A DNA stretch of 64,000 bases. Origin: an uncultured Acidobacteriota bacterium (GTDB lineage Bacteria; Acidobacteriota; Vicinamibacteria; Fen-336). Shown here piece after piece: positions 12,125 to 12,608 of the stretch. Within the stretch, counting starts at the first letter, position 1, and every line of letters starts with the position of its first letter. Both the position numbers and the translations under genes were made by a program. The DNA lies in the NCBI GenBank assembly GCA_963720545.1, contig OY970399.1:2502908-2566907 (forward strand), written 5' to 3'. Under the pieces are notes generated by a model. The model was not told the origin of the DNA and did not search any database. It was given only the letters and a program-made list of their open reading frames with translations.

Positions 12125-12594
12125 GACGCCGCCTTGCGCATGTCGGCTCGTGTCGAGCGCGGTTGGAGCGCCACCACTTGCGTAATCCACCGTGGTTCAG
12201 CGATCAGATCGGCCAGCGTGGCGCGATCGAGCACCGCGAGAAACGCGCCAAAGGCCTCCCTGAGCACTCCTTTCAGTCCGCATGCGCGCGACAGGGGACA
12301 GGTGTTCGTGTCTCGTTCGAAGCACTCCACCAACGTCATGGTGCCTTCGGTACGTCGGACGACCTCGCCGATCCGGATGCGGTCTGGCGGTTTGGCGAGC
12401 GCAAACCCGCCATCGCGGCCGCGGGTTGTGTCGAGGTAGCCGAGGTGCTGGAGCTCGTTGACGACCTTCACCACGTGATGACGTGAGATGCCAAACGCCG
12501 TGGCGGCGTCGGTCGTGAGACATCGCGAATCAGAATGTACGGCCGCATAGATGAGCACGCGGAGGCCGTAGTCGGTAAAGGAAGTAAGTTGCAT
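12121..12594 (-). CDS. Rrf2 family transcriptional regulator (Fe-S type, NsrR/IscR-like)
   Basis: MQLTSFTDYGLRVLIYAAVH... Rrf2 HTH; three clustered Cys (ECFERDTNTCPLSRAC) typical of cluster-binding Rrf2 proteins. Confidence 0.8.
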   Translation of the reverse strand: MQLTSFTDYGLRVLIYAAVHSDSRCLTTDAATAFGISRHHVVKVVNELQHLGYLDTTRGRDGGFALAKPPDRIRIGEVVRRTEGTMTLVECFERDTNTCPLSRACGLKGVLREAFGAFLAVLDRATLADLIAEPRWITQVVALQPRSTRADMRKAAS

Positions 12595-12608
12595 GTAAAA
12601 TGCAACTT
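12586..12608. promoter_or_regulatory. 23-bp perfect palindrome AAGTTGCAT-GTAAA-ATGCAACTT (NsrR-type operator) overlapping the Rrf2 start codon
   Basis: 9-5-9 inverted repeat with ATGCAT-like half sites, close to the published enterobacterial NsrR consensus AAGATGCATTTNAAATGCATCTT; it lies in the divergent region between the Rrf2 operon (-) and a cupin gene (+). Confidence 0.6.

Follow-up and report, generated by a model that had tools for sequence, protein, structure and literature searches.

A predicted NsrR-type operator placed over the start codon of its own regulator gene and conserved among Acidobacteriota

The window analysed here is a stretch of 64,000 nucleotides of contig OY970399.1, from an uncultured bacterium of the phylum Acidobacteriota, and the element in question is an inverted repeat at 12586-12608 that lies over the start codon of a gene for an NsrR-like repressor of the Rrf2 family. 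We consider it quite probable that this repeat is the operator of the adjacent repressor, a predicted site for an NsrR-type protein with a [4Fe-4S] cluster. On the best reading of the sequence it would be an autoregulatory operator, controlling nsrR itself, the gene for a group III truncated globin that follows nsrR, and probably a NasC-like gene cluster further downstream. Judged by its letters and its place, it is a conserved operator of a known type that is unusual in its position over its own start codon.

The plus strand of the site reads AAGTTGCATGTAAAATGCAACTT. A repeat search found two 9-nt arms, 12586-12594 and 12600-12608, that are 100% complementary and 5 nt apart, so that the element has the form AAGTTGCAT-GTAAA-ATGCAACTT with perfect arms. 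The first-pass annotation of this DNA had called it a perfect 23-bp palindrome, which is too strong, as the spacer GTAAA is not self-complementary and in an 11-1-11 register the arms pair at 10 of 11 positions. Its proposal of an NsrR-type box at this place is borne out by that same canonical 23-bp register. In PMC8175989, after Partridge et al. 2009, the NsrR consensus is given as two inverted 11-bp motifs, AAxATGCATTT, with 1 bp between them (AAxATGCATTT-n-AAATGCATxTT). The site agrees with the published consensus at 17 of the 20 specified positions and in the same register. When the window was searched for AANATGCATTTNAAATGCATNTT with up to three mismatches, 12586-12608 was the sole match, with three mismatches, and none of 100 shuffles gave one. 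The exact operator pattern, again with up to three mismatches, likewise occurs once in the window and in no shuffle, and a generic 14-position NsrR core is matched at 14/14. The arms are A/T-rich within DNA of 65% GC, and an arm with at least six A/T appeared in 0/30 simulations. Palindromy by itself is weak evidence and not significant in this window, where perfect 9-nt-arm inverted repeats with spacers of 0 to 8 nt number 10, compared with 2-16 in Markov-1 simulations.

The protein encoded next to the site carries the features of an NsrR. Its winged-helix Rrf2 domain (PF02082) scores 114.5 bits against a cutoff of 30, and its top NCBIfam match is NsrR (NF008240, 131.3 bits), with RirA next (124.2 bits). 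The nearest solved structure is Streptomyces coelicolor NsrR (5N07, E 9e-25), in which D8, C93, C99 and C105 are, as we take it, the ligands of the [4Fe-4S] cluster. D8, C91, C99 and C105 of the protein in the window align with these four residues and are invariant across an 11-sequence alignment, which bears out the three clustered cysteines of an Fe-S Rrf2 sensor noted earlier. In the recognition helix, S37, R38, H40 and K43 show little or no variation. Identity to the NsrR proteins of Brenneria, Vibrio harveyi and a Bacillales species is 47-50%, and the N-terminus of the protein, MQLTSFTDY, is NsrR-like, the Met-Gln-Leu (MQL) start being common to NsrR proteins across phyla. The Joint Genome Institute (JGI) annotates these acidobacterial proteins as NO-sensitive Rrf2 repressors (NO, nitric oxide), and there are 1851 homologues at E <= 1e-30.

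The closest genomic relatives are metagenome-assembled genomes (MAGs) of the Acidobacteriota/Vicinamibacterales, at 62-92% identity. We compared 17 distinct loci besides the window, namely nine MAG loci and L191, L202, L203, L205, L207, L208, L213 and L215; the extra contigs were drawn from metagenomes and from exact-protein look-ups. The arrangement of a box on the nsrR start with a globin gene next recurs in all 17. The globin start overlaps the nsrR stop (ATGA), the two genes are adjacent in 10/10 genome loci, and the globin lies immediately downstream in the further contigs too. Among solved structures the globin matches 2IG3 best (E 4e-13), a truncated haemoglobin of group III, with group I HbN reaching only E 0.0099. 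That a truncated haemoglobin is the first structural gene under the box, as the first-pass annotation stated, therefore holds; its description as the classical partner of NsrR is inexact, because the classical target is the flavohaemoglobin Hmp (PMC1274295) and the globin here belongs to group III.

The nsrR ATG (12594-12592, minus strand) falls within the repeat, and the right arm of the operator is made up of nsrR codons 1-3, ATG CAA CTT. The overlap with the start codon had been recognised before; the site also overlaps a predicted promoter. TTGCCA-17-TAAAGT (12633..12605, minus strand) was the sole sigma-70-like promoter match in 12400-12800, where 0.0 were expected, and the final four bases of its -10 hexamer are the initial four bases of the operator. 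The -10 hexamer is separated from the ATG by 10 nt and a Shine-Dalgarno sequence is absent. As the -10 stands just 10 nt before the ATG, a leader of about 0-4 nt is predicted for the nsrR transcript. With a transcription start that we infer from this spacing, the promoter would be nearly leaderless and the centre of the operator would fall close to +1. Several close homologues (P0006, P0046, P0077 and P0108 among others) are recorded with 180-226 aa compared with about 152-157 aa; gene callers may have extended their starts upstream, which would fit the lack of a ribosome-binding site before the true ATG. In L004 (about 5920-5965), tandem CTTGGGG units immediately precede the -35 region in the nsrR promoter.

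In 17/17 other loci the dyad occupies the identical place: counted from the first base of the start codon, it reaches 14 nt upstream and 9 nt downstream. Identity in a 16-locus alignment is 91% over the -10 and left arm and 99% over codons 1-3, compared with 57% in the 5-nt spacer, 47% in the upstream flank and only 73% at the third positions of codons 4-20. Codons 2-3 of nsrR are CAA CTT in 16/16 loci. In the codon usage of the operon genes, CAA accounts for only 18% of the codons for Gln and CTT for 8% of those for Leu, and CTT is used at 0/152 other Leu codons of the orthologous nsrR genes. Since these rare codons never vary, selection acts on the DNA rather than on the protein. The promoter is conserved as well: TAAAGT is present in 15/16 loci, a TTGnnn hexamer precedes the -10 by 17-18 bp in 14/16, and the distance from the -10 to the start codon is 10 nt in 16/16. 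One genome, MAG CAVOHG01, holds two nsrR-globin modules (L002 and L010). The L010 module starts with GTG and, at the mirror-image position in its left arm, carries C in place of T (AAGTTGTAC-CACAA-GTGCAACTT), a symmetric double change.

For a comparison across lineages we used 80 genome loci from several phyla, fetched by protein. In most of the non-acidobacterial nsrR genes among them, the centre of a strong box lies 49-130 nt before the ATG, and a few alphaproteobacterial MAGs have one at -14 or -15, whereas in 9/9 loci of the acidobacterial clade the centre is at -3. Other lineages also encode MQL by other codons. Vibrio nsrR boxes read AAGTTG[C/T]ATTT.TAATGCATGTT, with a left half-site, AAGTTG[C/T]AT, that is the same as here, and Vibrio vulnificus NsrR footprints such a box and represses hmpA and nsrR itself (PMC8175989). 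As the Vibrio boxes share the half-site, the motif in the window is within the known range and its position alone is unusual. The earlier remark that a box so close to the enterobacterial consensus is not expected in this lineage is unsupported, given the shared Vibrio half-site, the strong boxes across phyla and the JGI annotation.

An indication of a regulon comes from a relative (L203/L209) that has the same operon and whose NsrR is 83% identical. Three boxes matching the generic core at 14/14 lie there within 10 kb, in a stretch of 20 kb of L209. In L209, box 1 is at the nsrR start. Box 2 overlies the MQL start called for a cupin-like gene; next comes an FNR-like reductase, whose top partial NCBIfam matches are PaaE and the reductase part of Hmp. 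Box 3 is about 285 nt upstream of ccoN-, ccoO- and ccoP-like (cbb3-oxidase-like) genes. Markov simulations of the L209 locus gave a match of at least 13/14 in 0/200 cases, so the three boxes suggest that the motif marks a regulon. A 60%-identical homologue of the L209 cupin-like gene lies within the nsrR operon of L205. Extra boxes together with this homologue are the usual comparative-genomics sign of a shared regulator, which argues that the dyad is a target site for a factor acting in trans rather than an oddity confined to the 5' end of nsrR. The extra L209 boxes are at 401-423 and 9493-9515 (the same box also appears at 3493-3515 in L203), and the box, TAAAGT and ATGCAGCTT start of the cupin-like gene resemble a duplicated promoter-operator cassette. 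A regulon, which the first-pass annotation predicted for NO, is supported in this relative; a search of the 64-kb window for more copies of the motif gave no further site. The FNR-like reductase, the 136-aa cupin-like protein and the ccoN-like genes of L209 have no homologue in the window. When metagenomes were scanned for AAGTTGCA-N7-TGCAACTT, there were at least 120 matches, of which 118 of those listed were unrelated (mostly in low-GC DNA) and two were nsrR starts; the high-GC non-nsrR matches among those listed had no NO-related context.

Several observations weigh against reading the repeat as an NsrR operator. No second site was found inside the window, whether with a position weight matrix built from acidobacterial sites (at 8 bits or more), with the generic core (at 11/14 or more) or with half-sites, for which a search allowing up to one mismatch gave 6 matches compared with 4.7 expected, which is chance level. 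The protein misses the NCBIfam equivalog cutoffs for both NsrR (131.3 against 182 bits) and RirA (124.2 against 193 bits), and the RirA model scores nearly as high as the NsrR model. The description of NF008240 names only NsrR, and the model was presumably built from enterobacterial sequences. As the NsrR cutoff is missed, we limit our claim to an NsrR-like subfamily rather than a strict equivalog. The right arm is also constrained by the coding of Met-Gln-Leu and the left arm by the -10, so that part of the conservation has other causes. The hexamer TAAAGT fits TATAAT at only 4/6 positions, the transcription start site is a predicted one, and locus L207 retains the dyad although its promoter is degenerate. 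Lastly, the closest characterised group III globin, Ctb of Campylobacter jejuni, gave no protection against NO.

The alternative that survives best is that this Rrf2 protein does bind the site in response to iron or Fe-S status, oxygen or redox, as RirA, IscR and RsrR do. The near-equal NsrR and RirA scores (131 and 124 bits), both under the NCBIfam cutoffs, would fit such a signal, as would the wealth of Fe-S proteins among the downstream genes. We nevertheless think it unlikely, because MQLTSFTDY and D8 are as in NsrR, the box fits the NsrR consensus, the globin is an invariant partner, and the targets in the relative are a cbb3-like oxidase and a reductase-like gene similar to the reductase module of Hmp. 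It is very improbable that there is no operator at all, that is, that the left arm is simply the -10 with the initial transcribed region, the right arm the coding of Met-Gln-Leu, and their symmetry an accident. TAAAGT does overlap the left arm, MQL is N-terminal in NsrR proteins across phyla, and 9-nt inverted repeats are common in the window. Such an accident would not explain why the third positions of codons 2-3 are invariant although the codons are rare, why TG[C/T]A past the -10 is conserved and the next 5 nt are not, why the NsrR consensus is matched in register, or why the same dyad stands at two other L209 promoters; in other lineages, moreover, MQL is written in other codons and the box is placed elsewhere.

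It also seems to us very improbable that the repeat works at the RNA level, as a hairpin in the nsrR mRNA masking the AUG or terminating transcription. A 9-bp stem does form in the predicted fold (z = -2.7), a scan flags the repeat as terminator-like, the left-arm C-to-T changes in L003, L010 and L203 would retain G-U pairs, and L010 has a double change (T-to-C in the arm with a GTG start). However, the conserved promoter sets the predicted transcription start within or after the left arm, so that the hairpin would not be transcribed; pairs are broken in L005, L006 and L207, no Rfam family matches at 12300-12900, the fold shows nothing but the dyad itself, in L209 the dyad also stands some 285 nt before a gene, and a terminator at a start codon makes no sense. 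The least probable alternative is that a different factor occupies the site, for example a paralogous NsrR like the second copy in the L002/L010 genome, whose two nsrR-globin modules have slightly different boxes, but in every module the start carries a box of its own, and the window has a single nsrR.

Under the favoured reading, that of an NsrR operator, a dimer of holo-NsrR would bind the 23-bp dyad, which would cover the last four -10 bases, the predicted transcription start and the first three nsrR codons. Bound NsrR would occlude the region from the -10 to +13 and thereby keep RNA polymerase off the nearly leaderless promoter. NO would nitrosylate the cluster and release the repressor. 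This would switch on nsrR and, coupled to it in translation, the group III truncated globin; the six packed downstream genes, from the NarI-like protein through the TDT-family channel, would probably be induced as well. Binding, repression, NO as the effector, co-transcription and the role of the globin are all inferred parts of this picture.

Such a mechanism has close counterparts. The gammaproteobacterial operators of Escherichia coli and V. vulnificus share the 23-bp 11-1-11 dyad, with 17/20 consensus positions, and, if the promoter predicted here is right, the placement of the box over the promoter or +1, and there, as predicted here, the repressor controls its own gene plus a globin gene. 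The differences are that the box here lies at -3 of the nsrR ATG, with a half-site in codons 1-3 and almost no leader, that the globin is of the group III truncated type and not Hmp, and that the phylum is Acidobacteriota. S. coelicolor NsrR has a small, specialised and autoregulated regulon, hmpA1, hmpA2 and nsrR, with full 11-bp inverted repeats (PMC4432287). It is the nearest protein of solved structure (5N07/5N08), with D8 and the three cysteines aligned, but its box departs markedly in sequence from the E. coli type, while the present one is E. coli/Vibrio-like, and the S. coelicolor targets are flavohaemoglobins. In Legionella pneumophila, glbN-lpg2536 is the predicted sole NsrR target (Rodionov et al. 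2005, PMC1274295). A truncated-type globin and a ferredoxin-reductase-like gene stand there under an NsrR box, as an FNR-like unit is boxed in L209; the Legionella globin is termed a cyanoglobin, whereas the one here is of group III, and both cases are predictions. In Acinetobacter baumannii, too, NsrR controls a haemoglobin gene.

Two further systems resemble the genes under the operator rather than the operator itself. According to the abstract of PMC4724949, a globin of Bradyrhizobium is co-expressed with NasC from narK-bjgb-flp-nasC, which couples nitrate reduction to NO detoxification. A globin gene likewise stands together with a NasC-like gene here. The Bradyrhizobium system as that abstract describes it has a single-domain globin and a flavoprotein, the abstract does not mention NsrR, and the NarI-like, Fe-S, Rieske, DUF6755 and TDT genes are extra here. 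Ctb of C. jejuni is the nearest solved globin (2IG3, group III), and nitrosative stress induces it. Rodionov et al. (PMC1274295) assign its regulator, NssR, to the CRP/FNR family, whereas the regulator here is of the Rrf2 type.

The genes downstream of nsrR, listed in Table 1, are packed so that stops and starts overlap, and the start of the membrane-protein gene overlaps the globin stop. A search from 12600 to 5661 gave no internal promoter-like sites, and terminator-like sites in the scanned region were no more numerous than expected from shuffles. It is plausible from this layout that nsrR through the TDT channel form one eight-gene operon. NasC (NF047855) is the top NCBIfam match of both halves of the molybdoenzyme (478 and 216 bits); both halves of the frame-broken gene miss the equivalog cutoff of 1100 bits, so we call it NasC-like only. 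At 9460-9641 of the window, two apparent compensating frameshifts some 110 nt from each other enclose a conserved 32-residue segment of the NasC-like protein that is encoded in a different frame. In L002 and L003 the orthologous genes break elsewhere, which suggests long-read indel errors and not a pseudogene. Another sign of assembly indels may be a SulP-like transporter, recognised by eye at 13063-14300 (plus strand), that seems split over frames into open reading frames (ORFs) 13063-14085, 13382-13660 and 13880-14224. About 1.1 kb past the end of the TDT gene at 5661, an ORF at 3872-4573 (minus strand) contains HTH_21, a domain of some transposases.

Table 1. Predicted genes and regulatory elements around the candidate operator, in window coordinates
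Feature	Position	Strand	Remarks
Candidate NsrR operator	12586..12608	.	Minus-strand reading AAGTTGCAT TTTAC ATGCAACTT
Predicted -35 hexamer TTGCCA	12628..12633	-	Promoter search
Predicted -10 hexamer TAAAGT	12605..12610	-	Promoter search
nsrR-like Rrf2 repressor gene, 157 aa, N-terminus MQLTSFTDYGLR	12121..12594	-	Pfam Rrf2 match
Group III truncated globin, 137 aa	11711..12124	-	Pfam Bac_globin PF01152, 25.1 bits (cutoff 21)
Membrane protein, 395 aa, Cys-rich C-terminus	10527..11714	-	Weak sub-threshold NarI/QmoC/TcuB similarity (Nitrate_red_gam E 0.0013)
NasC-like molybdopterin oxidoreductase	8195..10489	-	Frame broken by two apparent compensating frameshifts, ~9500-9640
4Fe-4S dicluster protein (Fer4_11)	7536..8264	-	True start probably near 8180-8195
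Rieske [2Fe-2S] protein	6967..7539	-	
Small membrane protein, family DUF6755	6743..6970	-	Overlaps both neighbour genes
TDT/SLAC1-family anion channel	5661..6746	-	Final gene of tightly packed cluster
Divergent Cupin_2 gene	12662..13009	+	67 bp from nsrR ATG

The nsrR-globin pair stands alone in L004-L006, L008, L213 and L215, and elsewhere it heads the nitrate-reductase-like cluster. The block of NarI-like, NasC-like, Fer4_11, Rieske, DUF6755 and TDT/SLAC1 genes recurs, at 5661-11714 (minus strand) of the window and at 12813-18856 of L209. This recurring block may be an uncharacterised nitrate-reductase-type complex, a description of which was not found in the literature searched. In L009 (2134-4488) the cluster's membrane protein is preceded, in one fused protein, by a major facilitator superfamily transporter domain (Pfam MFS_1), and in L011 (7033-9333) a 766-aa ORF occupies the same position, its C-terminal part matching the membrane protein. 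Both of these MAGs are labelled 'Bifidobacteriaceae', a label or binning that is doubtful because this high-GC locus is of acidobacterial type. The divergent cupin gene that the earlier annotation had placed across the intergenic region is indeed there, and it is a possible second target of the operator. It is present in L002, L003, L008, L203 and L207 and absent from the other loci, and no promoter-like match for it was found on the plus strand in 12400-12800. On the cupin strand the spacer reads TAAAAT or TAATAT in three loci with a divergent cupin (12596-12601, plus strand, of the window, and L002 and L008) and is G/C-richer in most cupin-less loci. The central TAAAAT could, speculatively, be a cupin -10 without a -35, or reflect mere relatedness.

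For NsrR biology as such, these results are confirmatory rather than surprising. If confirmed, they would extend NsrR-type NO sensing, with its motif essentially unchanged, to the Acidobacteriota, a dominant and poorly studied soil phylum relevant to the turnover of NO and nitrous oxide (N2O); no description of an NsrR operator in Acidobacteria was found in the literature searched. The operator would also be a clean example of a transcription-factor site that constrains synonymous codons at a gene start. More tentatively, we suggest that in Vicinamibacterales-like Acidobacteriota, where nsrR codons 1-3 would hold half of the operator, this single site might make a whole undescribed nitrate-reductase-like complex and a group III globin inducible by NO. 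If that is true, nitrate reduction would be coupled to NO sensing in abundant soil bacteria. The predicted operon ties the group III globin to the nitrate-reductase-like complex and so may offer a testable handle on both.

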